Shown in pieces: positions 11 through 48,044 of a DNA stretch of 64,000 nt. Source of the DNA: a virus. The notes under the pieces were generated by a model. The model had not been told where the DNA came from, ran no database searches, and worked only from the letters and a program-made list of their open reading frames with translations. The position numbers and the translations under genes are program-made. Positions within the stretch are counted from its first letter, which is position 1. The number at the start of each line of letters is the position of its first letter. The stretch lies in the IMG/VR virus record IMGVR_UViG_3300025030_000039, positions 124,878 through 188,877 of that record. One strand, 5' to 3'.

Positions 11-616
11 ATGAAATATATTAAAGACTATAACGATTTTATTAATGAAGCTAAATTACCTGATGTAAATTTAAATCCATTATATTTAGAAGCTAAAGAA
101 AGTAAAAGATATAAAGAGTTAATTGAATTAGAAGTAAAAGATATATCTACATTACAACAATAAAAGAATGGTTCATTTCAATTTTCTCCATTATTTAGAA
201 TCAAAGAAGTTCAAACATTAAAAGATAATCCTTTGGTTAAAAAGCAACCTAAAGAAAAAATTTTAGATTATGATTTAATTTTAAATAATGAATTTAATAA
301 ATTTGAAATTTTTCAATGTCGTAAAAAAAGTGTTAGATTAAAACATGGATCTGGAACATATGCAGGTTTAAATATTGGAAAAATTGGAAAAAAATATACT
401 AACTATAATGATGCTTTGGAATTTATAATAAATACTATAAAAAAAGATAAAAAGAATGTTGAAGATATTGTAAAATATTGGAAACAAGAAATAAAAAATA
501 ATATGTCAGTTATTAGTATAGTTAGAAAAATATTTGAACTTGAATTTATTAAAAAATATTTTAATATACCAGATCATTTAATTAATGCTGATGATTTTGG
601 ATTCTTAGATAATTAA
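11..616 (+). pseudogene. MKYIK-N-terminal / ADDFGF-C-terminal family gene interrupted by a single in-frame TAA (161-163); N-part 11-163, C-part 164-616
   Basis: ATG at 11 encodes MKYIKDYNDFINE...STLQQ then TAA. The same frame stays open through the track ORF 233-616, which the track starts at an internal TTG. That ORF ends ...INADDFGFLDN, matching the C-terminus of the LRR paralogue at 9476-10165. Confidence 0.5.
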
Positions 617-631
617 AAATAAAATATTGAT

Positions 632-1015
632 ATGAAATACATAAAAGAGTATAGTGAATTTGTTAATGAATCAGTCGGAACTCCATTGACATTATATACA
701 GCAAGAGCTTCTAGTTATTTATCTCAACAATTAAAAATAGTTAAGGCTATTGAAGATAAAAAAACTCTTATGAATAAACCTAATACGGATAACGAAACAC
801 GAAAAACATTACAGGAGCATATAGCAGTCTTAAAAGAAAAGGAGGAAAAGATTAAACTGAATCTTGATAAGGCTATAGAAAAAGCTAGTGAAAAAGTTAA
901 AAAATTACCACAAGCTAAAAGAAATGCTTTAATGAAAATGGGAGAATCTGAAAAAGAAAAGGTTGATAAAATTAAAGAACAAATAATAGAGCTAAAACAA
1001 ATAAAGAGGAATTAA
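632..1015 (+). CDS. MKYIK-N-terminal family protein, Lys/Glu-rich and probably coiled-coil
   Basis: N-terminus MKYIKEYSEFVNES is shared with the ORFs at 11, 9476-10165(-), 47133 and 47553. Confidence 0.55.
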   Translation: MKYIKEYSEFVNESVGTPLTLYTARASSYLSQQLKIVKAIEDKKTLMNKPNTDNETRKTLQEHIAVLKEKEEKIKLNLDKAIEKASEKVKKLPQAKRNALMKMGESEKEKVDKIKEQIIELKQIKRN

Positions 1016-1029
1016 TTCCTCTTTATTTT

Positions 1030-1227
1030 TTAATTTTGTGACTCATCTTTAAATACAGGCCATTGAGCTCCATCTATTCGCATTTTTAAATAAGTAATAT
1101 GTTCCTTTAACATTTGATTAATTAATTCTAATTCTTGAAATTTATTACTTAAATGTTCATAGCCTTTTTCAACAACTAATAAACGCATTTCTAATCCTTT
1201 AATATGTTTAATATCCATTTCACTCAT
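1030..1227 (-). CDS. hypothetical small protein (65 aa)
   Basis: ORF abuts the S1-like gene on the same strand. Confidence 0.3.
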   Translation of the reverse strand: MSEMDIKHIKGLEMRLLVVEKGYEHLSNKFQELELINQMLKEHITYLKMRIDGAQWPVFKDESQN

Positions 1228-1229
1228 AA

Positions 1230-2399
1230 TTAAACTTTTTTAAATTCTATTTTTTTATTATCTATATCTATTTTAGAAATAATTACTTCTATTTCTTCAT
1301 TTTCTTTTAATTCAATACCTTCAAATTCTGATATATGAAGTAAACCTACAATGCTTTTTTCTAATTCGATAAATGCACCATAGTTTTTAATTGATGTTAT
1401 TCTACCTTTTGCTTTGCTTAAAGGTGGATATTTTTTATCTATATCTACCCATAAATCTTTTTGTAATTGAGTTAAAATTATTTTATTTTCATTTATAATA
1501 TCTTTAACTAAAAATTTAACTTTATCTCCAGCTTTAATACTTCTATTATTGAATTTATTTAACCATTCATCATTTAATTCATTCATAGGAATTAAACCAG
1601 TTAAACAACCAAATTGCGCAAATATTCCAAATTTTGTAGTTCCAGTAATAAATCCTTCATATTCATCATTAATATTATCTCTAATTTTATCTAAATTATT
1701 TCCAACTTGTGTTTTTAGATATTCTCTATGAGATACTACTATAGTACCTTTTTCTTTAGAATAATTTATAGGCATTACAATTAATTCTTTTCCTATAAGA
1801 GAATTAAAATCAATTAATTTATTCATTCCACCTAAAGATCCTGGCATAAATACTTCTATACTGTCAATTTTTAAAAGATAACCACCGTGAATTAATTCTT
1901 TTACTATTGCTTTATATGCAACAGGTTTTCCTACTGAATCTAAAATTTCTTGGAATTTATTATCTTTAATAGCATCTGAAAATGATGCTCTAAAATCATT
2001 ACTATTATTTTTTGAAATTTTTACTTTAATTTCATTACCTACTTGTAAAAGATCAGAATATTTTTTATCTTCTTTTTTAAGGTTTAACGTTACTGTATGT
2101 TTACTGTCTACTTCTAAGCAAGCATCTTCTTTATTAATTGAAACTATCTTTGCTGTTATCGTACTTCCATTTTGCAATTCAGTATATTCAAAGTCATTAT
2201 TAGGACCATTTGTATATAACTCATATGCTTCTTTTACATAAGATTCATCACTAAAGATTTTTGTTTTTCTTGGGATTTCTAATTCTACGAATTCTTCTTC
2301 GAATGGATTGTGTACGTTAGTTTTAATTTTTACTTTTGTTAACATTTTAAAAATAATTAAGGGTTGATAATGGATTAATCTAGGTGCATTTGGATGCAT
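1230..2399 (-). CDS. ribosomal protein S1-like protein with about four S1 RNA-binding domains
   Basis: S1 signatures GRITSIKNYGAFIELEKSIVGLLHISEF and GFITGTTKFGIFAQFGCLTGLIPMNEL. The segment GGYLLKIDSIEVFMPGSL...GKELIVMPINYSKEKGTIVVSHREYL aligns with Firmicute-type 4-domain RpsA. Confidence 0.65.
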   Translation of the reverse strand: MHPNAPRLIHYQPLIIFKMLTKVKIKTNVHNPFEEEFVELEIPRKTKIFSDESYVKEAYELYTNGPNNDFEYTELQNGSTITAKIVSINKEDACLEVDSKHTVTLNLKKEDKKYSDLLQVGNEIKVKISKNNSNDFRASFSDAIKDNKFQEILDSVGKPVAYKAIVKELIHGGYLLKIDSIEVFMPGSLGGMNKLIDFNSLIGKELIVMPINYSKEKGTIVVSHREYLKTQVGNNLDKIRDNINDEYEGFITGTTKFGIFAQFGCLTGLIPMNELNDEWLNKFNNRSIKAGDKVKFLVKDIINENKIILTQLQKDLWVDIDKKYPPLSKAKGRITSIKNYGAFIELEKSIVGLLHISEFEGIELKENEEIEVIISKIDIDNKKIEFKKV

Positions 2400-2542
2400 C
2401 CTATTAAATCTAATTTATTAATATAATAGGTACTATTATTTGCAATATGCGTTAAATAAGAGTGTACGTTTAATTTCGTTGTAACATTCATTAATGTTTA
2501 AATTAAAGGATTAAAAAATATATATCATAGGGACTTTTAAAA

Positions 2543-3817
2543 TTATTTAGCTTCACCTTCTCCAGTTTCATCGTCAGTACCATTAGATGGATCAGTTTTA
2601 AGTATTATAGTATCTCCAGAAGCAGATAATATTTCAGCTGTTAATTTTGTTCCTAAATCAGCATGAAAAAATTCTATTTGATTTCCAACTTTAAATGCCT
2701 TAGAAGGATCTGCTTTTTCATTATCTAATTTTAATGCTTTACTAGATGCTACATATCCTAAAACTTTAAATGGTGGTTGAGATGGAACACCAGCTGGAAA
2801 AAATAAACCTAAAATAGTTTCAGGTTTCAATAATCCAATCATCCATTTTATTATACATTGAACTAACAATAAAAAAGATATTATTTTATCAAATCCTGGA
2901 TATGATACTGCCATATCCATTAATTCATCTATTGTTAATTTAGGTGCTCCTATTTTAAATATTCTATCAAAAAATGCTTGAACACCTGCTGCTATACCAC
3001 TTATATCTACAACAGGAGGTGCAAATGATTTAGCTATTTCAGCTATAACGGGACCTAATATATCACCAATCATTCCTAATACAAATCCAACAGGGTCAGA
3101 TGCAATTTCAGTTAATTTATTTACTGCTGCTATAATATCAGTAGTTAAATCTTTTACAATATCTACTACAGCTTTAATAAGTCCTATTGCAAATTTAATA
3201 GGTAAAAATATTATTCCAATTATCTTAACATAAGGTATAAGATCAGTTAATAATTTACCAAATCCATCTATAGGAATATTCAATAATTGCATTACTTGAT
3301 CAATAATTTCTTGACCTAATGCTTGCAATGTATCTGGTATTAAAAGCTTAGCCTCATCTAACCATTTTTTCCAATCTATATCTGTTAATGTTAATGTATT
3401 TACTATTATATCTATTATAGCATCACCACTTGGAATAGGAACCATTAAAAAATCAAAAGGTTTTAATAATTTTGAAATTATAAATTCAACAACACTCATT
3501 GGTAAATTTGCTAATAAATCACTAATAGCACTTACAAGAGCAGCTACTTTACCGGCAAATTCAGCAGGAGCTTCTATACCAGCTTTTAATGCTTCTGTTA
3601 CAGCAGAAACTAAACCTATTAAAGGTTCATACGGAGTAGTAATACCTTTTTCAAAACTTCTTATTATAGTTTTTACTAAAGCACCCATACCTGGCTTTTC
3701 TGTATTCATATCTATTTCTAAACCTGAATCTTTTAAACAACTACCCAAGTCATCTATCATTTGTTGTAATTGTGAATCTTGTATCAATACTGGGTTTAAA
3801 CCAAAATCTGCTGCCAT
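2543..3817 (-). CDS. hydrophobic alpha-helical protein immediately downstream of the spike gene (tape-measure-like or membrane-active; function unknown)
   Basis: 424 aa rich in I/L/A/G/V with amphipathic stretches such as LIPYVKIIGIIFLPIKFAIGLIKAVVDIVKDL; sits 3 nt after the spike ORF. Confidence 0.4.
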   Translation of the reverse strand: MAADFGLNPVLIQDSQLQQMIDDLGSCLKDSGLEIDMNTEKPGMGALVKTIIRSFEKGITTPYEPLIGLVSAVTEALKAGIEAPAEFAGKVAALVSAISDLLANLPMSVVEFIISKLLKPFDFLMVPIPSGDAIIDIIVNTLTLTDIDWKKWLDEAKLLIPDTLQALGQEIIDQVMQLLNIPIDGFGKLLTDLIPYVKIIGIIFLPIKFAIGLIKAVVDIVKDLTTDIIAAVNKLTEIASDPVGFVLGMIGDILGPVIAEIAKSFAPPVVDISGIAAGVQAFFDRIFKIGAPKLTIDELMDMAVSYPGFDKIISFLLLVQCIIKWMIGLLKPETILGLFFPAGVPSQPPFKVLGYVASSKALKLDNEKADPSKAFKVGNQIEFFHADLGTKLTAEILSASGDTIILKTDPSNGTDDETGEGEAK

Positions 3818-3820
3818 AAT

Positions 3821-4603
3821 TTATTCTGTAAAAGATTTAGTACTTAATGGTGTTTCAAAGCCCATAGATATAGGGGTACCTGTGGGCGAACCTAAATTTC
3901 CGATGTGACAGTGCCCGTCAAATATAGGTTTAAAGCTCGTTCCTTGTACAAGAGCTTCTGCTGCAGCTGCCCCTAATTTTATTTTAGTTGCTTCTACTTC
4001 AGCTGTTCCAGATACTGTTAATGTTGCATCACCAGAACATTCACCTACTATGTTAACGCATTTAACGTTTATGTCAGCAGCTACTTCTAAGTTAACTGTG
4101 CCATCTGCTAATATTTCAAATAAATCTCCATTAGGATTTGTAATATGAAAGTTATTGTCAGGATCTAAATTAATTATAGTTTCTTTATAATCTATACTTA
4201 ATCCTTTTCCTTGTGTAAAATAAATTTTTAAAGCTTCATCTGTATCAAATATTAAAGAATGAAAATTTATAGGATCTGTTTTAATTTCTTCTTTTAATTC
4301 ATCAGAAATTCTTTGATGAAAAAAGTATTCAGGATGATAAATATTACCATTATCAAATTTAATTGATACTATAGATCCAACTCTTGGAACTGAATAATAA
4401 CCACCACCTGTTATTGATCCAGCTGTAGTATTATTAGCAGGATAAGCCCATGGAATATGTTCATTCGATAAATTATCAAATTTACCATATACTTTTACTT
4501 TTATTCTTCCTTCATATTGAGGATCTTCATTAACAACTACTTCACCTAACCAAGTAGATGTTGTTAAATTGTCACTATAATATTCTTCTTGTGTTAGTCT
4601 CAT
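3821..4603 (-). CDS. baseplate central spike, gpV/gp5(VgrG)-type N-terminal OB-fold with a C-terminal beta-helix and HxH apex
   Basis: LGEVVVNEDPQYEGRIKVKV...IPWAYP...TAGSITGGGYYSVPRVGSIVSIKFDNGNIYHPEYF matches the conserved gpV / phage baseplate assembly V pattern. The C-terminal GHCHIGNLGSPTGTP resembles the metal-binding HxH tip of P2 gpV-type spikes. Confidence 0.7.
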   Translation of the reverse strand: MRLTQEEYYSDNLTTSTWLGEVVVNEDPQYEGRIKVKVYGKFDNLSNEHIPWAYPANNTTAGSITGGGYYSVPRVGSIVSIKFDNGNIYHPEYFFHQRISDELKEEIKTDPINFHSLIFDTDEALKIYFTQGKGLSIDYKETIINLDPDNNFHITNPNGDLFEILADGTVNLEVAADINVKCVNIVGECSGDATLTVSGTAEVEATKIKLGAAAAEALVQGTSFKPIFDGHCHIGNLGSPTGTPISMGFETPLSTKSFTE

Positions 4604-4605
4604 AA

Positions 4606-6285
4606 TTAATTGTATACATTTTCATTATTAATTGAACCATGATTTAATGTTCCATCTGGAAATATAACTATTTTGTTTATAATTAAATCTTTATTTAAAG
4701 TATTATCGGGCAAAATATCTATATTTCCTAAATTTAAAGAAATAGGTCTATGTTGAAAAATATTCATAGGGTTAAAATTATCATTGGTAGCTAAATGTTT
4801 ACCTGAAAATATATTATCAGTATCTGCAGGTTTATAACTTTCAGTTCCATCTGGTAAAATAGATAATTTAAATGGCCTATTTGTATTAATACTATTAGGA
4901 AAAATATTATCTTTATCTACAGCATTATAGCTTTTAGTTCCAACTGGTAATAAAGGTTCTGTATTAGATTTAATATAACTAGCAGTTCCATCTTTAAGTA
5001 TAGGTTCTTCATTTAAATCAAATGTTCCGTGTGTTATATTTTGATATATTTTAACTTGGTTCATTTTAAATTTAGACACATCTATACCATGAAGTCCTTT
5101 ATAAATATTATCACTCATTCCAAATAAACCTTTAGCAAATTTAGTAACTCCACTTTCAATTGCACCACTTACTTTATCAATAGCTCCATTAATAACAGCC
5201 ATTCCTTTTCTTAAATATTTATTACTAGGCATATGAATGCCTGAATCCATTTGTATAAATCTTTTTCTTTTAGATTTATCTATAGTACCTTCTATTTTAT
5301 CTTTAGGTGTACCATTTTTAAGCATAGGATGATCTGTAATAATACTAGAATACCAAAGTGGAGCAGAATCTATTTCAAGTACTTGATATTCAAAAACTAA
5401 TTGTTGTTTAGTAGGTTCTGGTCTAACATTAGTAATATTTTCCCAGAATGCAGTACTCTCCATAGTATTGAATTCGCATTTTTTCGCAATAATAACATAT
5501 TGAGTTAAATTTTTCATTAATCTTCTAGCTGGATTATCACTATTATCACTACCTACATTATGACTTCTTGGTGCTAAATCTAAACCACTTAAAAGAGGAG
5601 TTGTATTATCAGCTTTCTTTTCTTTTATAAAATCTGTTTTACTATGAAATGGTCTAATATCTTGTATAAGAATTGTTACATTAAATTTTACAAGATTAGC
5701 AGGTATTATTTCCCTAACGAATTTAGAATCATAAGTAGCTGCTCTATATAAATCAAGTAATCCTGTTATAGCAAAATCCATAGATTCTAAACAATCAATA
5801 GATATTTTAGCATCATCACCTCCAGCAAAAGTAGAAAAATGATTATTATAAGTTTGCCATAATCTATCTAATCCAGTAATTCCTTGCCAATACCAAGGTT
5901 GATTTTGATTAATATATTGTAATCTGTTATAAAATTCTTGTAAATATTCTAATCTTATAGTTTCATTTTGTCTATATAAATATCCAGCTGCGCTATCTGC
6001 TGGATATGAAGGCTGTCCACTGCCTCCACTTCCACCCTGAAGACCTTTAAATAATGGGCTATCATACCAATCAAATAATAATTTAAATCCAAGATATGTA
6101 GGTTCACTGTATCTGCTATAGTCATGTGCAGTTCCTTTTTTAAATGCATTAACATCTGCAGACCAAAAAGTAGTACCTTTATTATCTATATCAGCATGAT
6201 ACATGATAGTTTTAGGATAATTACCTTTCAATAATCCTCCAACTGCGCCTTTTGCGGCATTCATTCCATCTTCTACTAATCCCAT
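4606..6285 (-). CDS. large tail/baseplate-associated protein (559 aa; hub- or wedge-like, unassigned)
   Basis: Lies directly upstream, in transcription order, of the spike. C-terminal repeats have the form [IL]P[DV]GTxSYxxxDxDNIF. Confidence 0.35.
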   Translation of the reverse strand: MGLVEDGMNAAKGAVGGLLKGNYPKTIMYHADIDNKGTTFWSADVNAFKKGTAHDYSRYSEPTYLGFKLLFDWYDSPLFKGLQGGSGGSGQPSYPADSAAGYLYRQNETIRLEYLQEFYNRLQYINQNQPWYWQGITGLDRLWQTYNNHFSTFAGGDDAKISIDCLESMDFAITGLLDLYRAATYDSKFVREIIPANLVKFNVTILIQDIRPFHSKTDFIKEKKADNTTPLLSGLDLAPRSHNVGSDNSDNPARRLMKNLTQYVIIAKKCEFNTMESTAFWENITNVRPEPTKQQLVFEYQVLEIDSAPLWYSSIITDHPMLKNGTPKDKIEGTIDKSKRKRFIQMDSGIHMPSNKYLRKGMAVINGAIDKVSGAIESGVTKFAKGLFGMSDNIYKGLHGIDVSKFKMNQVKIYQNITHGTFDLNEEPILKDGTASYIKSNTEPLLPVGTKSYNAVDKDNIFPNSINTNRPFKLSILPDGTESYKPADTDNIFSGKHLATNDNFNPMNIFQHRPISLNLGNIDILPDNTLNKDLIINKIVIFPDGTLNHGSINNENVYN

Positions 6286-6289
6286 TTTC

Positions 6290-7556
6290 TATATTTTATT
6301 TTGATGCGATGTAGTTTAATTTAAAATTAGAGGGACCACATACTCCTCTATGTAAAATATTCACTGCTGCATTATAATCTGCATCAATCTCTATTTTACA
6401 GCTTGAACATAAATAAACTTCACCTTTACGACTCTCTTTATCTATATTCGCGCATTTTGAACAAGTCTGGCTAGTATACGCTGGATTCACCTGCTTAATA
6501 AAGAAACCTTCTTCCTCGGCCAATAAATTTAATCTAGCATACACCTTTGGATAACTCCATCGCTGTATCTTATTCATTATTTTGTTATTTATATATTTGT
6601 TTGAATTATATTTAACATTTTTTAATTCTTCAATAATCAATTGATCGGGACTTTCATTTCTTATAAACTCTTTAACAGTTACATTAATTAACTCATCTCT
6701 TTCAATCAATGCTCTTTTAAATGATTTACTACCTTGCTCTTTTCTAGCTATCTTATAATAAATATTAAATAATTCTTTTCCATAATGTTCTCCTGAACTA
6801 GAAGATATTAATTTTTTATATCCTGTATCTATTCCTATAGACTTAATTATTTCTTTCTTTTTAGGTTCTTTCTTTTCCCATATTAAATCTATAAAAAATT
6901 TATCATCTTTTTTTCTTAATATTATTGTATTCTTTCTGTTCCAATTTTCGTTTATAAACCTATTACTTTGTCTATAATGCTTAATAGGAATATTAATTTT
7001 AACTGATAAATGTTTATTATCTTGAAAATAAGGAGTTTTAATTCTAATAAATTCATCAAATATATTTCCTTTTTTAATATCAAATAATCTATTATCAATA
7101 TACAATGAAACATTTTTAATTTGAATTTTTGGAATTCTTTTGATATAATTTATGTTTAATTCACTAAATCTTTTAGATGTAAAGTTTTGATGAATATTAT
7201 TTTTTATACATTTAGAATAAAGATATTTATATTTTTTATAAACTTTATTTTTAGATTTTTCTGTAGTACTTTTAATTATTTCAATTGCTTGTTTATATAT
7301 AATATGTTTCCATTGAGAGTGTTTAAAAATATAATTTGGTAAAATTTTAGATGATATAAATTTTTCAAAAGGTAAAGTTTTGTTTAAAATTAGATCGATA
7401 TAATATTGAAGCATTAGTTTATAATCATTATAGAATTGATCTATAATATTTAATTTTTCTTTATTTGAAAAACTTAAAACATGCTTACTCGTTCTTATCA
7501 TAATATATTTTCTTTAATAAATAAAAATTTTAATCAAATTGATGCGATGTACTCTC
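6290..7556 (-). mobile_element. IS1341-type (tnpB-only) insertion sequence, copy A, flanked by the 13-bp direct repeat TTGATGCGATGTA (6304-6316 and 7542-7554)
   Basis: About 90% aa identity to copy B. DNA identity to copy B ends right after GGTCCCTCTAATT at the 3' end on the minus strand. Confidence 0.55.
6296..7501 (-). CDS. tnpB: TnpB (IS200/IS605-family OrfB, RuvC-like nuclease with Zn finger), copy A
   Basis: RuvC-I SIGIDTGY, RuvC-II IIEELKNV, Zn finger CSKCANIDKESRKGEVYLCSSC, RuvC-III EIDADYNAAVNILHRG. Confidence 0.85.
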   Translation of the reverse strand: MIRTSKHVLSFSNKEKLNIIDQFYNDYKLMLQYYIDLILNKTLPFEKFISSKILPNYIFKHSQWKHIIYKQAIEIIKSTTEKSKNKVYKKYKYLYSKCIKNNIHQNFTSKRFSELNINYIKRIPKIQIKNVSLYIDNRLFDIKKGNIFDEFIRIKTPYFQDNKHLSVKINIPIKHYRQSNRFINENWNRKNTIILRKKDDKFFIDLIWEKKEPKKKEIIKSIGIDTGYKKLISSSSGEHYGKELFNIYYKIARKEQGSKSFKRALIERDELINVTVKEFIRNESPDQLIIEELKNVKYNSNKYINNKIMNKIQRWSYPKVYARLNLLAEEEGFFIKQVNPAYTSQTCSKCANIDKESRKGEVYLCSSCKIEIDADYNAAVNILHRGVCGPSNFKLNYIASK

Positions 7557-8940
7557 TTTTAAGAAGAGTTAATCTTTGTTTAATTGGTCCTGGAAAATTA
7601 TAAAAATATGTTATATCCGCAATAACATAATCACCACTTAAAAAATCATTTTTTAAAGGTGTTTTATCTAATGAATTTACTGTCTCTTCTTTCTGTATAC
7701 TTTTAGCAGTTTCTTCATAATTAAAAATAAATATAGGAACACTCTGAAATTTAGTTAATGTCATATCTGCAGATTCTAAAACTATATTCATTCCCATTTT
7801 AAATATTTCAGTTTTGTTTTGAAAGTTTAATACTTCAGAATATTTAAAATTTTCATGAACATTACCATCTGTTCTAGAATCTTGTTTTCCTAAATATTTA
7901 TATTTAACATGAGTATCAGAAACACCTTCAGGTACAAAATTATCCCCTTGTTTAATTAATCTTCCTTTTAAATGAACCATATTTTCAGAACCTTCAGTTG
8001 TTAATGGATCAACAAATTCACTTACATATTGATCTCCATCTACTTCAAAAAATTGCGCGTATCTTTTATATCCATTCATAAGAAATATTGTTCCACTATT
8101 ATTAAACATTTGATAATCAGTAATATATTTAGAAGTCCCTTCGAATGTAACATGATTAGTTAACATTAAAGGAGCTTTTTGAATATCTTTTTTTAATTCA
8201 TCAGGTGATACAGTATATCTAGCATCATTAACTCTATAAATTTCTGATTCAGTTATTTCAGAATCAATAGAAAATTGTTTATTAATATTTATAAAACATA
8301 AATTATAATACGAGTCAATATATGATGTAAAAAAACTCGTATCATCTTTATATACATTTGATAAAGAATCCTTTAAAAACTTTATTGTTGTATCTAATGG
8401 ATTAATCCATTTCATTTTATCATTAGTATTTTCTTCATTAGTGGCAAATCCTAATTCTAATTTTTGAGAAATTTCTAAAAATAAATCATAACTACTCATG
8501 TCATAAGATTCACAAAATTCAGTTAATAGATTTGGTACTTTCATTTGACCATAAATAGTAAATAATGTAGGTAACTTAGAAGATTTATCTCTAAATTGTG
8601 GACTAACGGATAAAATATCAAAATCTATTCTTATTTGTTTAAATACTTCTTCATTATTAGATCTTATTAAAAAGTTAATAACATCACCATCTCTTGGAAA
8701 AAATCTGGACATAAAGTTCATACTTTTATCTTGAACATTAACTCTAATTGTTGGTAAAAATGATGTTAAATTTAATTCAAATGAACCTAATTCTTTTATA
8801 TCAAATTCATAACCATTTATTTTAATTAATGGGAGATGTATACCTCCAAAATCTGAAGCATCACTTTCAGGAATAGCCATTTCATCAATAGTTATGGTTT
8901 TTTCAGTTATATTTAATATTGTATTTTCTAAATTTGCCAT
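7534..8940 (-). CDS. tail/baseplate-associated hypothetical protein (468 aa)
   Basis: Lies between the LysM gene and the spike region; its C-terminus ...EYIASI shares the 13-bp repeat with the IS flank. Confidence 0.3.
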   Translation of the reverse strand: MANLENTILNITEKTITIDEMAIPESDASDFGGIHLPLIKINGYEFDIKELGSFELNLTSFLPTIRVNVQDKSMNFMSRFFPRDGDVINFLIRSNNEEVFKQIRIDFDILSVSPQFRDKSSKLPTLFTIYGQMKVPNLLTEFCESYDMSSYDLFLEISQKLELGFATNEENTNDKMKWINPLDTTIKFLKDSLSNVYKDDTSFFTSYIDSYYNLCFININKQFSIDSEITESEIYRVNDARYTVSPDELKKDIQKAPLMLTNHVTFEGTSKYITDYQMFNNSGTIFLMNGYKRYAQFFEVDGDQYVSEFVDPLTTEGSENMVHLKGRLIKQGDNFVPEGVSDTHVKYKYLGKQDSRTDGNVHENFKYSEVLNFQNKTEIFKMGMNIVLESADMTLTKFQSVPIFIFNYEETAKSIQKEETVNSLDKTPLKNDFLSGDYVIADITYFYNFPGPIKQRLTLLKREYIASI

Positions 8941-8943
8941 TTA

Positions 8944-9549
8944 TTATTGTTTAATAGTTTTAAAATTTGCATCAAATGTTATTTTACCGTTTTTTATAAT
9001 AGTTCCTTTTTCTCCAGGTTGTAAATAATTAGTTGGTAATACTTCTTTAACAGCTCCTTTTTTTCCTTTAGCTTTTTCTTTTAATCTATCTATTCTATTC
9101 TGATCTTTTTCTGTTAATCTATCTATATCAACATATTGAGATCTTAAATCTTTTGCAACAGGTTCACCTGGAGTTTCATATACATCAGAAGCATTATCTA
9201 CTTTTGGTATAACTAAAATATCTCCAACATTAATACTAAATGGATTATAAATCGCATTAGCTTTACAAATCAAATCAATATATTCAGTACTACCATAATA
9301 TGTTAATGCTATTAAATCCATTCTCATAGCAGTCTCTTCAGTAACATAATAAATAGCCATGGTTTTAAGATCAATATCATGCTTAATTGATTGAGATGAT
9401 AAATCTAAATATTTATCTCCATCTTCATCAGTAAGAGTTTTTTTATTTTGTAAAGATTTAATATTCATATTTATTTTATTTTTTAAATCCAAAAAATCCA
9501 AAATCATCTGCATTATACAAAAGATCATACTTCTTTCTAACCCAATCAC
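8944..9549 (-). CDS. LysM-domain tail protein (gpX-like); the true start is probably the internal Met at about 9468, which would remove the overlap with the LRR gene
   Basis: YYVTEETAMRMDLIALTYYGSTEYIDLICKANAIYNPFSINVGDILVIPK fits the LysM consensus. Confidence 0.55.
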   Translation of the reverse strand: MIGLERSMIFCIMQMILDFLDLKNKINMNIKSLQNKKTLTDEDGDKYLDLSSQSIKHDIDLKTMAIYYVTEETAMRMDLIALTYYGSTEYIDLICKANAIYNPFSINVGDILVIPKVDNASDVYETPGEPVAKDLRSQYVDIDRLTEKDQNRIDRLKEKAKGKKGAVKEVLPTNYLQPGEKGTIIKNGKITFDANFKTIKQ

Positions 9550-10165
9550 TCACCTTTAACTTTCTTATTAACTCATACTTTATATATAAACTAGAATCTT
9601 GACTTAACCAATTATCAACTATATAATCTATATTATTTATATTTAATATTTTTAAATTTAAATCTAATAATTCTATAGGTAATATTGATGATTCATTATT
9701 TTTAAAATTAATTGATATATCTAATATATTTAAATTTTTTAATTTTAGCAATATAGTTGGAAAAGTAATAAAATTATTTTTAGATAAATATAAACCTCCT
9801 AAATTTTTTAAATTACCTATTTCCTTCGGCAACTCAGTTAATTGATTATCATGCAAATATAAATCTTTTAATTTTTCTAATTTTCCTATTTCTTTAGGTA
9901 ACTCCTTTAAATTATTATTAAATGCAGTTAATATTTTTAAATTTTTTAAATTACCTATCTCTTTTGGTAATTGTGTTAATTTATTGTTATATAAAAATAA
10001 ACGTTCTAAATTTTTCAATTTACCTATTTCTTTAGGTAAGTCATTTATATTTTTATCATTTAATCCTAAATCTTTTATATTTAAATCTTTTAATATTAAA
10101 TTTAAAATTTTTTCACTTTGCTTTGATTCATTTAAAAAATCCTTATATTTTTTAATATATTTCAT
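9476..10165 (-). CDS. leucine-rich repeat protein with MKYIK-type N-terminus and ADDFGF C-terminus
   Basis: About six 23-aa repeats of the form LPKEIGxLKNLxxLxLxxNxLxx. N-terminus MKYIKKYKDFLNES; C-terminus LLYNADDFGFFGFKK. Confidence 0.8.
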   Translation of the reverse strand: MKYIKKYKDFLNESKQSEKILNLILKDLNIKDLGLNDKNINDLPKEIGKLKNLERLFLYNNKLTQLPKEIGNLKNLKILTAFNNNLKELPKEIGKLEKLKDLYLHDNQLTELPKEIGNLKNLGGLYLSKNNFITFPTILLKLKNLNILDISINFKNNESSILPIELLDLNLKILNINNIDYIVDNWLSQDSSLYIKYELIRKLKVSDWVRKKYDLLYNADDFGFFGFKK

Positions 10166-12019: not shown

Positions 12020-13225
12020 ATAGTTATTTTTTAATTAGAGGGACCATATACTCCTCTATGTAAAATATTCACTGCTGCATTATAATCTGCATCAATCTCT
12101 ATTTTACAACTTGAACATAAATAAACTTCACCTTTACGACTCTCTTTATCTATATTCCCGCATTCTGAACAAGTCTGGCTAGTATACGCTGGATTCACCT
12201 GCTTAATAAAGAAACCTTCTTCCTCGGCCAATAAATTTAATCTAGCATACACCTTTGGATAACTCCATCGCTGTATCTTGCTCATTATTTTGTTATTTAT
12301 ATATTTGTTTGATTTATGCTTAACATTTTTTAATTCCTCAATAATCAACTGATCAGGACTTTCATTTTTTATAAACTCTTTAACAGTTACATTAATTAAT
12401 TCATCTCTTTCAATCAATGCTCTTTTAAATGATTTACTACCTTGCTCTTTTCTAGCTATCTTAGCATAAATTTCAAATAAATTTCTTCCATAATACTCTC
12501 CTGAACTAGAAGATATTAATTTTTTATATCCTGCATCTATTCCTACCGATTTAATTATTTCTTTCTTTTTAGGTTCTTTCTTTTCCCATATTAAATCTAT
12601 AAAAAATTTATTATCTTTTTTTCTTAATATTATTGTATTCTTTCTTTTCCAGTTTTCGTTTATAAACCTATTACTATACATATGATATTTAATTGGAATA
12701 TTAATTTTAACTGATCTATATTTATTATCTTGAAAATATGGAGTATATAATTTTATAAATTCATCAAATTTATATCCTTTTTCAATATTAAATAATCTAT
12801 TATCAATATGCAATGAAATATTTTTAATCTGAATTTTTGGAATTCTTTTTATATAATTAATATTTAATTCATTAAATCTTTTAGATGTAAAATTTTGATG
12901 AATATTGTTTTTTATGCATTTAGAATAAAGATATTTATATTTTTTATAAACTTTATTTTTAGATTTTTCTGTAGTACTTTTAATTATTTCAATTGCCTGT
13001 TTATATACTATTTGTTTCCATACAGAATGATTAAAAATATAATTTGGAAGTTCTTTAGATGACAGAAATTTTTCAAAAGATAAAGTTTTGTTTAAAATTA
13101 GATCGATATAATATTGAAGCATTAGTTTATAATCATTATAGAATTGATCTATAATATTTAATTTTTCTTTATTTGAAAAACTTAAAACATGCTTACTTGT
13201 TCTTATCATATAATATATATTTGAA
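12020..13225 (-). mobile_element. IS1341-type insertion sequence, copy B, intergenic
   Basis: Ends inferred from where similarity to copy A stops. Confidence 0.5.
12031..13209 (-). CDS. tnpB: TnpB (IS200/IS605-family OrfB), copy B
   Basis: The first 40 aa are identical to copy A. Zn finger CSECGNIDKESRKGEVYLCSSC and all three RuvC motifs are present. Confidence 0.85.
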   Translation of the reverse strand: MIRTSKHVLSFSNKEKLNIIDQFYNDYKLMLQYYIDLILNKTLSFEKFLSSKELPNYIFNHSVWKQIVYKQAIEIIKSTTEKSKNKVYKKYKYLYSKCIKNNIHQNFTSKRFNELNINYIKRIPKIQIKNISLHIDNRLFNIEKGYKFDEFIKLYTPYFQDNKYRSVKINIPIKYHMYSNRFINENWKRKNTIILRKKDNKFFIDLIWEKKEPKKKEIIKSVGIDAGYKKLISSSSGEYYGRNLFEIYAKIARKEQGSKSFKRALIERDELINVTVKEFIKNESPDQLIIEELKNVKHKSNKYINNKIMSKIQRWSYPKVYARLNLLAEEEGFFIKQVNPAYTSQTCSECGNIDKESRKGEVYLCSSCKIEIDADYNAAVNILHRGVYGPSN

Positions 13226-44670: not shown

Positions 44671-44969
44671 TATAATTTTTCGAAACATTTTAAAATAATA
44701 GAACATTTTTCATATTCTTCTATTTCAATATAATAGTTCTTTAGTTCTTCCAAAATTATATTCCAATTATTTCTATGACATTTTATTTGCATAAGTTTAG
44801 ATCCTTTTAATTCTAAATAAAAAATAGGCATTAATAAAATATCATTATTTATTCCATAGATAATAGCGTTATATAAATTATTATATAACAAATCTTTATT
44901 AGCAGTTAATTGGCCAAAAGCTTCATTAACTGTATTGCAGTTCATAAGTTTAAAAGTAGATAATTGCAT
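44670..44969 (-). CDS. hypothetical protein (99 aa)
   Basis: ORF. Confidence 0.35.
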   Translation of the reverse strand: MQLSTFKLMNCNTVNEAFGQLTANKDLLYNNLYNAIIYGINNDILLMPIFYLELKGSKLMQIKCHRNNWNIILEELKNYYIEIEEYEKCSIILKCFEKL

Positions 44970-45812
44970 TTATTTTTTTATTTTTTGTAGCTTTTCAAAT
45001 AAAATTCTTTCTTCTTTAGATATAGATTCTGGAATTATTATTTGTACATTTATTATTAAGTCTCCTGTTTGTAAAGGATTTTCCATTAATGGCATTCCTT
45101 TACCATGAATTCTAAATTTTTTATTATTTGGAGTACAAGATGGTATTTTAATTTTTAATTTATTTTCGAATGTTTCTATTTCAACATGGCCCCCTAGTAT
45201 TGCAGTATATAAATCTACCTCTAAATTATAATAAAGATCTAAATTATTAACATTAAAATTTTTATCACTTATAACATGAACTATTACAATTAAATCTCCA
45301 TTATTAGGTGTTCCTTTTCCACCATATCCTTTAAATCTCAATTTGGTATTATCTCTAACACCTTTCTTAATATTAACGGAGTGTTGTTCACCTCCTGCAT
45401 ATACATTTTTATATATACCATTAAAAGCTTCTTTAAGTGTTAAATATACATCTACATGATAATCTTGTCCCTGCCCATTCCAAGCACTAGCAAAAATACT
45501 ATCAAAAATATCAGATGCATTAATATTATCCCATGACTCACGATTATAGAAATCTTTCATGAAATCATCATAAACATAATATCTATTAGCACCTTCAAGA
45601 TCATATTTATTTCTTTTATCTGCATCACTTAATATAGAATATGCTGAAGTAATTTCTTTAAATTTATCTTCAGCTTCTTTATCTTTATTTTTATCGGGAT
45701 GCCATTTAAGAGCTAATTTTCTGTAAGCTTTTTTTATTTCATCTTGGGTTGCATTTTTATCTATCTCTAATATGTCATATAAACTTTTATCCACCCTTCC
45801 TTTATTTTTCAT
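44970..45812 (-). CDS. DnaJ-family co-chaperone, type II (J domain plus DnaJ C-terminal domain, no Zn-finger repeats)
   Basis: [31 protein letters not shown] with the HPD motif. Confidence 0.8.
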
Positions 45813-46546: not shown

Positions 46547-47119
46547 ATGGCAATATTAACAAAATCGGAAATATTTAGACTAGGTTTTAAATCTGTTGGA
46601 GAGAATGTTTATATCTCAGACAAAGCTAGTTTTTACGGAACACGAAATATAGAACTAGGTAATAATGTAAGAATTGACGATTTCGTCGTTATCTCAGCTG
46701 GAGAAAAAGGAATTCAAATCGGTAATTATATTCATATAGGTGTTCAATCTTCTTTAATAGGACAAGAACATATTCTATTAAATGATTTTTCTAATATATC
46801 TTCTAAAGTAGCAATTTATAGTTCTAATGACGATTATAGTGGCCAGACTATGAGCAATCCTATGATACCGAACGAATATAAAAATGTTTATCATGCTGGA
46901 GTTTATATTGGAAAACATGTAATAATTGGATGTGGAAGTGTTATATTGCCAGGTTCATATATTGGCGATTCATCAGTTATTGGAGCATTATCTATAGTTA
47001 AAGTAAATAGTAGTATTCCTGATTTAGAAATATGGGCAGGTATTCCAGTTAAATATATTAAGCCTAGAGATAAAAATCATTTATTATTAGAAGAAAAATT
47101 TATGACTTCTAATATATAA
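46547..47119 (+). CDS. hexapeptide-repeat (left-handed beta-helix) acyl/acetyltransferase
   Basis: Isoleucine-patch repeats NVRIDDFVVISAGEKGIQIGNYIHIGVQSSLIG. Confidence 0.7.
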   Translation: MAILTKSEIFRLGFKSVGENVYISDKASFYGTRNIELGNNVRIDDFVVISAGEKGIQIGNYIHIGVQSSLIGQEHILLNDFSNISSKVAIYSSNDDYSGQTMSNPMIPNEYKNVYHAGVYIGKHVIIGCGSVILPGSYIGDSSVIGALSIVKVNSSIPDLEIWAGIPVKYIKPRDKNHLLLEEKFMTSNI

Positions 47120-47132
47120 ATAAAATGTTACA

Positions 47133-47549
47133 GTGAAACATATAAAGGAATATGAAGATTTTGTTTATGAATTTAGATCAACTAGATTAATAAGAAATAC
47201 AGGATCTAAATTTATAAACAAATTTAAAAATAATGTACCAAGTATTAGAGATTTTAATGGAATATCACTTGTTAAAAATCTTATTGATAATTATGAAACA
47301 CGAAATAAAATAACTAAAGTTTTATTAAAAACAGAAGATAAAGATAAAATAAAAGATTTAAAAGACGATTTAAATGATAATAAAGATGAACATACTAAAA
47401 TATCTGATAAAATTAAAACTAATACTGAAAAATTATCTTCATCTAATAAAAAAGTATCCGATAAGGATAAAGATAAAATTACAGAAATGAAAAAGAAAAT
47501 TCAAAAAATACAAGATGAATTTAAAAACATAAAATCTAAAAATAAATAA
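47133..47549 (+). CDS. MKYIK-N-terminal family protein (138 aa, Lys/Asp-rich)
   Basis: N-terminus MKHIKEYEDFVYEF. Confidence 0.5.
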   Translation: MKHIKEYEDFVYEFRSTRLIRNTGSKFINKFKNNVPSIRDFNGISLVKNLIDNYETRNKITKVLLKTEDKDKIKDLKDDLNDNKDEHTKISDKIKTNTEKLSSSNKKVSDKDKDKITEMKKKIQKIQDEFKNIKSKNK

Positions 47550-47552
47550 TAT

Positions 47553-48044
47553 ATGAAATACTTAACAGAGTTTTTTGATTTCATTAATAACGATATTAAT
47601 GAAAATGATATGTTATCTGAATATTTAAAGGAAGAATATTTAAATGAAGATTTTAGTTCTGAGTTTTATAATTTAGAAAATATAAATGAATCTAAAAAAT
47701 TATATGATACTGCTTTATGGAAAGAATATAGAAAAATAAAACCTTTACTAAAAGAAGGAAAACAATATAAAAAAGATACTAAAAGATATTTTGAATTACA
47801 AAAGGAATATATGTCAAAAGTATTAGAAGAAGATAAAGTTAATATTAAATATATGTCTGATCTTTTAATTGAAAAACTTAATTTATTAAATGAAGGAAGT
47901 AGAGATTATACTCTAAATGAAATGAGAAATAATAAAATTAAATTAATAGATAATTATAAGAAAAAACTTAATAGACAAATTAATAAAGACTTAAAAGAAA
48001 TGGAAGCGTTTTTTGATAGTAATCCTAAAATTTTATTGGTTTAA
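47553..48044 (+). CDS. MKYIK-N-terminal family protein (163 aa)
   Basis: N-terminus MKYLTEFFDFINNDINEN. Confidence 0.5.
   Translation: MKYLTEFFDFINNDINENDMLSEYLKEEYLNEDFSSEFYNLENINESKKLYDTALWKEYRKIKPLLKEGKQYKKDTKRYFELQKEYMSKVLEEDKVNIKYMSDLLIEKLNLLNEGSRDYTLNEMRNNKIKLIDNYKKKLNRQINKDLKEMEAFFDSNPKILLV

Follow-up and report, generated by a model that had tools for sequence, protein, structure and literature searches.

A short N-terminal tag shared by unrelated proteins of an uncultured huge phage is a probable T4-type capsid-targeting leader

A peptide of 13 residues heads five otherwise unrelated proteins encoded in a 64,000-nucleotide stretch of DNA from an uncultured huge phage (IMG/VR virus record IMGVR_UViG_3300025030_000039, positions 124,878 to 188,877; the whole stretch is called the window below). 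From its sequence and genetic context we consider it probable that this peptide, the N-tag, serves as a capsid-targeting leader similar in kind to that of phage T4, with a predicted cut after Glu13 by the S77 protease of the phage. The short amphipathic helix of the N-tag would dock the new protein onto the scaffold or core of the assembling prohead, Peptidase S77 (T4 gp21 type) would then cut after Glu13 at an [ILV]-x-Glu site, and the mature protein would stay in the capsid and be delivered with the DNA. A leader that is cut by the S77 protease would make the tagged proteins head-internal or ejected ones, five of them encoded in the window and about 31 in the genome, among them seven leucine-rich repeat (LRR) proteins and several enzymes. 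The first-pass annotation had proposed that conserved termini around variable cores are a shared targeting or packaging signal and had taken extracellular contractile injection systems (eCIS) as its model. The evidence favours such a signal, but the model was wrong, as we are dealing with a phage that has a T4-type portal, an S77 protease and a gp23-type capsid protein.

Over its first 25 kb the window matches, at 100% identity, LR756500.1, the 462,018-bp genome of an uncultured phage, from its position 322381, and all genome-wide counts given here refer to this whole record, which was put together from ten fetched pieces. In the window the N-tag takes the form MK[YH]I-K-x-[YF]-x-[DE]-F-[ILV]-x-[EN] at the start of open reading frames (ORFs) at 11(+), 632(+), 10165(-), 47133(+, with a GTG start) and 47553(+); its 13-residue consensus is M-K-[YH]-I-K-x-[FY]-E-[DE]-F-[ILV]-N-E. 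A regular-expression search of the six-frame translation of the window with the strict motif [MVL]K[YHF][ILV][KT][EDK][YF]x[DE]F[ILV]x[EN] returned exactly five matches, all of them ORF starts and all as first annotated, and 200 windows simulated with a first-order Markov model contained none. When all 22,230 candidate positions in the window were scored with a position-weight matrix, the five sites reached 22.8-38.8 bits and the next best position -0.3. Outside the tags no likeness between the five proteins could be detected, in agreement with the view that unrelated cores follow the shared N-terminus. The count of five is thus right for the window, but it understates the size of the family, as about 31 ORFs of the genome start with M[KE][YFH][ILMV]xx[YF]xxF (29 of the 38 matches to the core motif are ORF starts) and 15 end in a second motif, the C-tag, (KYEHLx)NADDFG[FL][FLI](DN), with 13 ORFs bearing both.

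The closest precedent for such a function is the capsid targeting sequence (CTS) of T4, which comprises 10 residues and is cleaved once (PMC8442874), and which sends proteins into the prohead core and is removed by gp21 (PMC8442874, PMC3012670). Residues 4 and 7 of the CTS are needed for targeting and residues 8 and 10 for processing, and with Asp at position 10 cleavage is blocked while targeting is kept (PMC9026906). In the T4 genome, IPII and IPIII begin MKTYQEFIAE/A and IPI begins MKTFKEF (here and below a slash marks a known or putative cut). Aligned from the cut site, T4 Y4-Q-E-F7-I8-A-E10 stands opposite [FY]7-E-[DE]-F10-[ILV]11-N-E13 of the N-tag, so that in both peptides a pair of aromatic residues at a spacing of three comes before an aliphatic residue, a position open to any residue and Glu (Y4..F7-I8-x-E10 in T4; [FY]7..F10-[ILV]11-x-E13 here). 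In a non-redundant set of 110 tagged ORFs selected by regular expression, the four T4-equivalent positions are the best conserved ones of the N-tag, with [FY]7 in 108 of these regex-selected sequences, [ILV]11 in 105 and E13 in 103. F10 is required by every motif definition used, and its invariance is therefore no independent evidence; among 28 ORFs that were picked with positions 11-13 unconstrained, 19 carry [ILV]-x-E, against an expectation of 1.5%. A literature search for the motif strings retrieved no paper describing them and only the T4 CTS as a match.

Further support comes from the head genes themselves and from their neighbours in related phages. Portal, protease and capsid genes are adjacent and in T4 order at 225-230 kb of the genome, outside the window (Pfam Portal_T4, 2.3e-70; Peptidase_S77, 6.3e-11, fused to a long coiled coil; Gp23, 8e-34), with the S77 protease domain at 228623-226728. 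The capsid protein has the N-terminus MIKLINE/AEI and the protease ...SLLIIE/RS, and in T4 gp21 LLIE-9 is a candidate autocleavage site (PMC9026906). At least 590 IMG/VR contigs pass tblastn confirmation (E<=1e-3) as capsid-protein relatives, and linkage was analysed in the best 80 of these loci (56-75% capsid identity, 1.15 Mb). LINE[AS]EV is found at the capsid N-termini in 68 of the 80, and proteases of the relatives carry LLI[LI]E/R. As many as 57 tagged ORFs occur in 44 of the 80 loci; on the strand of the capsid gene, 55 of 56 lie no more than 3.5 kb from that gene and 38 begin less than 300 nt after its stop. The gene order is portal, protease-scaffold, none to three tagged genes, capsid, one to three tagged genes and then conserved genes, with the number and identity of the tagged genes varying from contig to contig. 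The gene behind the capsid gene usually encodes a Lys/Glu/Ala-rich coiled-coil protein of 320-590 residues with the start MKR[VL]KSYN[QE]FI[AT]E/S, which is scaffold-like by composition and position, and two family members of the huge phage, g265937m and g302083m, have orthologues in this slot. A PHROG scan of the tagged head-module proteins from the relatives gave no match. As a separate observation, the scaffold-like tagged proteins of loci L160, L170 and L162 end near their C-terminus in F-K-D-F-[VLF]-x-E (for example SFKDFVTEKNKS), which suggests protease-type sites at both ends of these proteins.

But is it the peptide that is conserved, or merely the DNA that encodes it? The DNA upstream of the five window members shows no conservation, and across the 110 tagged ORFs the synonymous codons at conserved N-tag residues are as varied as the background or more so (TAC for Tyr3 in 41% versus 17%, TTC for Phe7 in 32% versus 16%, and all six codons for Leu6). 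Synonymous variation that equals or exceeds the background means that selection works on the protein. Without their first 15 residues the 110 proteins fall into 75 unrelated core clusters. A DNA pattern for the N-tag was found at 35 loci in IMG/VR, of which 33 are real ORF starts, one is an internal Met (L126, a false positive) and one a duplicate locus; several adjoining genes at these loci often begin MKHIK[LT]FE[EQD]F[IV]NE. In 596 Gb of prokaryote genomes the same pattern occurs in only 12 places, which are mostly spurious as ORF starts. The tagged IMG/VR contigs have many genes in common with the huge phage, at 30-60% identity, and orthologues of the tagged enzymes in relatives retain a degenerate tag (MKTRILNFNRFITE, MIPIKLFEEFVYE, MRLLSLNEFLLE) at a core identity of 31-40%. 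LR756504.1 contains one tag-like ORF in 40 kb, and none of the 120 best-scoring of 1,985 matches to LRR homologues elsewhere bears either tag. Blastn of tag DNA against a phage collection yielded mostly noise (a match in phage pT24 is gene-internal and one in Serratia phage CHI14 intergenic), and neither this search nor inspection of the first 50 kb of Tenacibaculum phage PTm1 found a cultured tag carrier. Taken together, the codon, upstream, cluster, orthologue and distribution results indicate that the N-tag is a modular peptide under amino-acid-level selection within one phage clade, a widespread and large clade of uncultured phages. With upstream DNA that differs, synonymous codons that vary and homologues in other phages that keep the tag, it is more than a recently duplicated piece of 5' DNA, an origin that had been considered at first pass.

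These results also bear on two explanations that place the function, if any, in the nucleic acid. If the shared 5' codons were a relic or a tool of recombination, left by duplication or kept as a homology handle around a functionless peptide, the frequent tandem arrays of tagged genes would be accounted for, and the 39 conserved nucleotides could support short-homology exchange. However, such an origin is at odds with upstream DNA that lacks conservation, with amino acids that are kept while synonymous sites vary at or above background, with orthologues that retain the tag beside so diverged a core, and with conservation centred on specific residues, and we regard it as very improbable. The recombination handle suggested by the first-pass annotation may exist as a side effect, but it fails to explain amino-acid conservation across phages at about 30-60% protein identity. 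Alternatively, the conserved start might act in the mRNA, as a translation-initiation enhancer or as the operator of a translational regulator, an idea to which the very A/T-rich sequence at the initiation region and the A-rich upstream regions without a Shine-Dalgarno sequence lend some colour. Yet the codons at conserved residues are at least as variable as the background, amino-acid substitutions are conservative and prokaryote genomes hardly contain the motif, which together make an mRNA element extremely unlikely.

The upstream regions of the 110 tagged ORFs (those of the window and of loci L107-L140) deserve mention in their own right, as the frequency of A has maxima at -9 to -17 and at -3 and no Shine-Dalgarno-like G-rich element is present; A-rich starts of this kind would fit a Bacteroidota-type host. 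Of the 618 predicted genes in the genome, 88 have a TATATAA box 15-34 nt upstream (3.8% expected). Portal, protease and capsid genes are among the 88, as are a baseplate gene and the genes that open several family clusters; examples of the box lie upstream of window positions 11 and 11997(-). The box is promoter-like and recalls the T4 late promoter TATAAATA. A late-promoter link of the tagged family was considered and rejected: the box precedes 7 of 29 family genes and is not specific to them.

The LRR member of the window lies in the tail module. The protein encoded at 9476-10165(-) matches Pfam LRR_14 (8.1e-25) and LRR_8 (4.3e-13) and contains tandem LxxLxLxxNxL repeats, in accord with its initial description as an LRR protein inside the tail module, and its neighbours are indeed tape-measure-like, baseplate hub, LysM/baseplate wedge and tail spike genes. 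A comparison of this neighbourhood with PTm1 revealed only one detectably conserved neighbouring gene. In an AlphaFold2 model of the protein (mean predicted local distance difference test score, pLDDT, 82.6) the solenoid has a pLDDT above 93 over residues 30-160, the N-tag forms a separate helix at residues 2-11 (pLDDT about 60) followed by a break at 12-14, and pLDDT falls below 50 in the final 11 residues (NADDFGFFGFKK), placing the C-tag in a disordered tail. Based on this model, both tags would be appended peptides outside the fold. LRR proteins of such type are very rare in deposited phage genomes: a tblastn search of the phage collection with window 9479-10165 found LRR matches only in the LR756500.1 phage (22 places), in some Listeria phage records and in two Leptospira phages. 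At its 3' end the LRR gene shares 74 nt (window 9476-9549) with the longest version of the downstream LysM/baseplate ORF (8944-9549, GTG start), whose real start probably lies further downstream. The tail/baseplate module also contains two TnpB/Cas12f-like ORFs, at 6296-7501(-) and 12031-13209(-), which flank the LRR gene and its neighbours (Pfam Cas12f1-like_TNB, 4.5e-17 and 5.1e-18; PHROG label transposase). Two TnpB-type insertions in the module mean that the place of the LRR gene there may be incidental.

It is the position of this gene between baseplate genes of the same strand that would speak for the N-tag as a cargo signal of the contractile tail, by which the tail tube or baseplate takes up proteins. 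Cargo of eCIS is known to have N-terminal packaging signals, and in eCIS such as the Photorhabdus virulence cassettes (PVC) an N-terminal signal likewise directs diverse cargo into a phage-derived particle. Here, however, the genes are those of a complete phage with portal, capsid protein and prohead protease rather than of a capsid-less injection system, and the tagged genes of the relatives flank the capsid gene rather than tail genes. The signal is also much shorter, a 13-residue helix with a protease-type ending and not a disordered domain of about 50 residues, and the location of the LRR gene, as said, may mean little. We therefore think loading into the tail quite improbable, and the eCIS analogy first drawn for these proteins has to be given up.

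The tagged proteins range from 50 to 491 residues, and in the genome their genes form clusters at 11.7-17, 197.8-201.8, 265-271 and 312.9-323.4 kb. The genome has seven LRR ORFs, of which every one ends in the C-tag and six also start with the N-tag. The N-tag also heads a polynucleotide kinase (PNK) 3'-phosphatase, an R2K ATP-grasp enzyme, a DUF2201 metallopeptidase/VWA protein and a GNAT-like protein, as well as a protein without a Pfam match that is ligase-like by a K-x-D-G motif only, as judged by eye.

Several points weigh against reading the N-tag as a capsid-targeting leader. The apparent likeness to T4 covers only about seven residues, and in 5 of 28 members position 13 is Asp or Asn, a change that blocks cleavage in T4. 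Enzymes with an expected cytoplasmic role (PNK 3'-phosphatase, ATP-grasp, DUF2201/VWA, ligase-like) are among the tagged proteins, the tagged genes of the huge phage are dispersed instead of lying beside its capsid gene, and the LRR member sits in the tail module. There is no basic shift in isoelectric point (pI), with a median of 7.1 for tagged proteins versus 6.5 for the background and a pI above 8 in 41-44% versus 37%, unlike the internal proteins of T4. PHROG and Pfam scans of the 110 tagged proteins gave hardly any matches and found no family that labels them as head components, and the first 50 kb of PTm1 lack the tag. Those 'structural' PHROG or Pfam labels that did appear all came from the one false positive, L126, where the motif lies at an internal Met, and were discarded.

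Some of these points would be met if the N-tag docked its proteins to another shared partner in the infected cell, such as a chaperone, a degron protease, a hub of replication or transcription or a compartment of the phage, and no packaging took place. Cytoplasmic enzymes (PNK3P, ATP-grasp, GNAT, DUF2201/VWA) behind the tag, a pI distribution that is not shifted towards the basic and the dispersal of the genes would all be as expected, and the C-tag recalls the acidic-aromatic C-terminal tails that bind hub proteins, of which the tails of single-stranded DNA-binding protein (SSB) and the clamp-binding tails are examples. But docking of this sort leaves unexplained why the N-tag matches the functionally mapped residues of the T4 CTS, why it ends in the same [ILV]-x-E as the N-termini of capsid protein and protease, and why, in the relatives, the head module holds 55 of 56 tagged genes next to the capsid gene. 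We thus hold it to be rather unlikely. None of the four rival explanations accounts for both the linkage to head genes and the protease-type ending, and a T4-type capsid-targeting leader remains the probable function of the N-tag.

What, then, could be the function of the C-tag? In the window ADDFGF occurs three and five codons before the stop, at 587-604(+) and 9511-9494(-), so that two ORFs do share the NADDFGF ending noticed at the outset, and NADDFG[FL][FLI] stands at the extreme C-terminus of all 15 C-tagged ORFs of the genome. When degenerate DNA patterns were run against IMG/VR (in two scans) and metagenome contigs, all 87 + 6 matches turned out to be due to chance, being ORF-internal or in non-coding frames, and a profile made from the last 60 residues of 14 sequences had no match at E<=10 in a set of 5.8 billion proteins. 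Because these searches came back empty, the C-tag is known only from the LR756500.1 genome. No obvious [LI]-x-E site stands ahead of it. Its interpretation as a clamp- or SSB-partner motif, which would require the polymerase or SSB to end with it too, was dropped, as no large ORF does. The most economical guess is that the C-tag is a second docking or sorting peptide. Encapsulin cargo is loaded via C-terminal peptides. T4 Alt and gp21, for their part, are processed at both ends (PMC9026906). By analogy with these two precedents, in which a short C-terminal peptide is involved in sorting into a capsid-like shell, a second sorting peptide would be plausible; the NADDFGFFDN tail has no sequence similarity to either, and the parallel is one of analogy only. 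A more far-reaching proposal would have the products of at least 31 genes (about 5%), including seven LRR proteins and PNK-type, ATP-grasp and metallopeptidase/VWA proteins, loaded into the giant capsid and injected into the host, with NADDFGFFDN as a second, hitherto undescribed sorting or cargo-loading peptide that sets apart a sub-class of the cargo and the leader marking the injected proteome throughout the clade. We put this forward as tentative, and doubtful as a whole.

The five window members differ in how well they preserve the tags. Member 1 has the N-tag MKYIKDYNDFINE at 11-49(+) (36.3 bits; predicted cut after Glu13, codon 47-49) and the C-tag NADDFGFLDN at 584-613(+), followed by the stop at 614-616. 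It had been described as one intact gene from 11 to 616(+), which is refuted by an in-frame TAA at 161-163 that is the same in LR756500.1. The reading frame consists of an ORF at 11-163 (50 residues) and continues in the same frame to 616, and owing to the TAA the N-tag and the C-tag are on two successive ORFs. Member 1 is probably a pseudogene or a split gene, with read-through as a third option. Member 2 (632-1015(+); N-tag MKYIKEYSEFVNE at 632-670, 38.8 bits) has a Lys/Glu-rich helical core of 114 residues; it has no C-tag, and a Pfam scan gave no match. Member 3 is the LRR protein of 229 residues (9476-10165(-)), with the N-tag MKYIKKYKDFLNE at 10165-10127, the LRR core at about residues 30-160 and the C-tag NADDFGFF at 9514-9491(-), followed by GFKK and the stop. 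The GTG-started member 4 (47133-47549(+)) is a Lys-rich protein of 138 residues with the N-tag (M)KHIKEYEDFVYE at 47133-47171 (37.9 bits), and member 5 (47553-48044(+)) an acidic one of 163 residues with the degenerate N-tag MKYLTEFFDFINN at 47553-47591 (22.8 bits), in which Asn replaces Glu13. Directly upstream of members 4 and 5, window 46547-47119(+) encodes a hexapeptide-repeat acyltransferase. Elsewhere in the window, 1230-2399(-) encodes a 389-residue protein with several S1 RNA-binding domains (Pfam S1, 2e-24) and 44970-45812(-) a DnaJ-type co-chaperone (DnaJ, 1e-27; DnaJ_C, 6e-36).

The LR756500.1 genome has a GC content of 24% and holds a segment of about 1.7 kb (367255-368992) that is absent from the window at 44875-44918, where the junction differs by a few bases. 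The missing segment and the altered junction mark the window as a variant of LR756500.1 without that insertion. The segment contains an ORF of 440 residues with no Pfam match but with RuvC-like GIDLN, VEDL and NPAYSS motifs, as judged by eye. By capsid and baseplate proteins the relatives of the phage are the uncultured phages LR756501-04 and LR745206 (634-735 kb), Tenacibaculum phages pT24, PTm1 and PTm5, Sphingomonas phage PAU, Chryseobacterium and Flavobacterium jumbo phages and the Prevotella Lak phages.

If the N-tag indeed acts as a capsid-targeting leader, sequence alone would suffice to list what an abundant clade of uncultivated large phages packages and injects, and these phages would carry a large and fast-changing protein arsenal in which LRR proteins, a rarity in phages, are included. 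A mechanism so far known from T4 and its near relatives only would be extended to distant huge phages of a Bacteroidota type, the compact 13-residue tag might be used for protein loading in new phage chassis, and the C-terminal tail would become a new sorting motif to study.

Two groups of phages offer themselves for comparison. The internal proteins of T-even phages form a very varied group with the CTS alone in common (PMC3012670), and like the CTS the N-tag is short and stands at the very N-terminus of proteins that evolve fast and are otherwise unrelated. Both systems have an S77 (gp21-family) prohead protease together with a T4-type portal and capsid, and the related head proteins carry [LI]-x-E near their N-termini. 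Different from T4, the N-tag has 13 instead of 10 residues, with three extra ones after Met-Lys, and is present in far more copies, about 31 genes in one genome and 75 unrelated cores sampled. Whereas T4 internal proteins are small and highly basic, the tagged cargo has no basic preference and includes LRR proteins and enzymes, part of the huge-phage family bears an extra C-terminal motif, and the huge-phage tag is known from sequence alone. In the giant phages phiKZ, 201phi2-1 and SPN3US a gp21-like protease also cleaves behind Glu at a short motif, many proteins inside the head bear N-terminal propeptides thought to direct their incorporation, and paralogues may have identical N-termini (PMC5694885, PMC9026906). 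These propeptides, however, mostly have 100 residues or more and an S/A/G-x-E or A-x-E site, and belong to another lineage (PMC5694885, PMC9026906), whereas the N-tag consists of one helix of 13 residues and, like T4, has an [ILV]-x-E site. The class of mechanism that we propose is thus one known from T4, and what is new here is a consensus of its own, a repertoire of very large size, cargo of an unusual kind and a C-terminal partner motif specific to the lineage.

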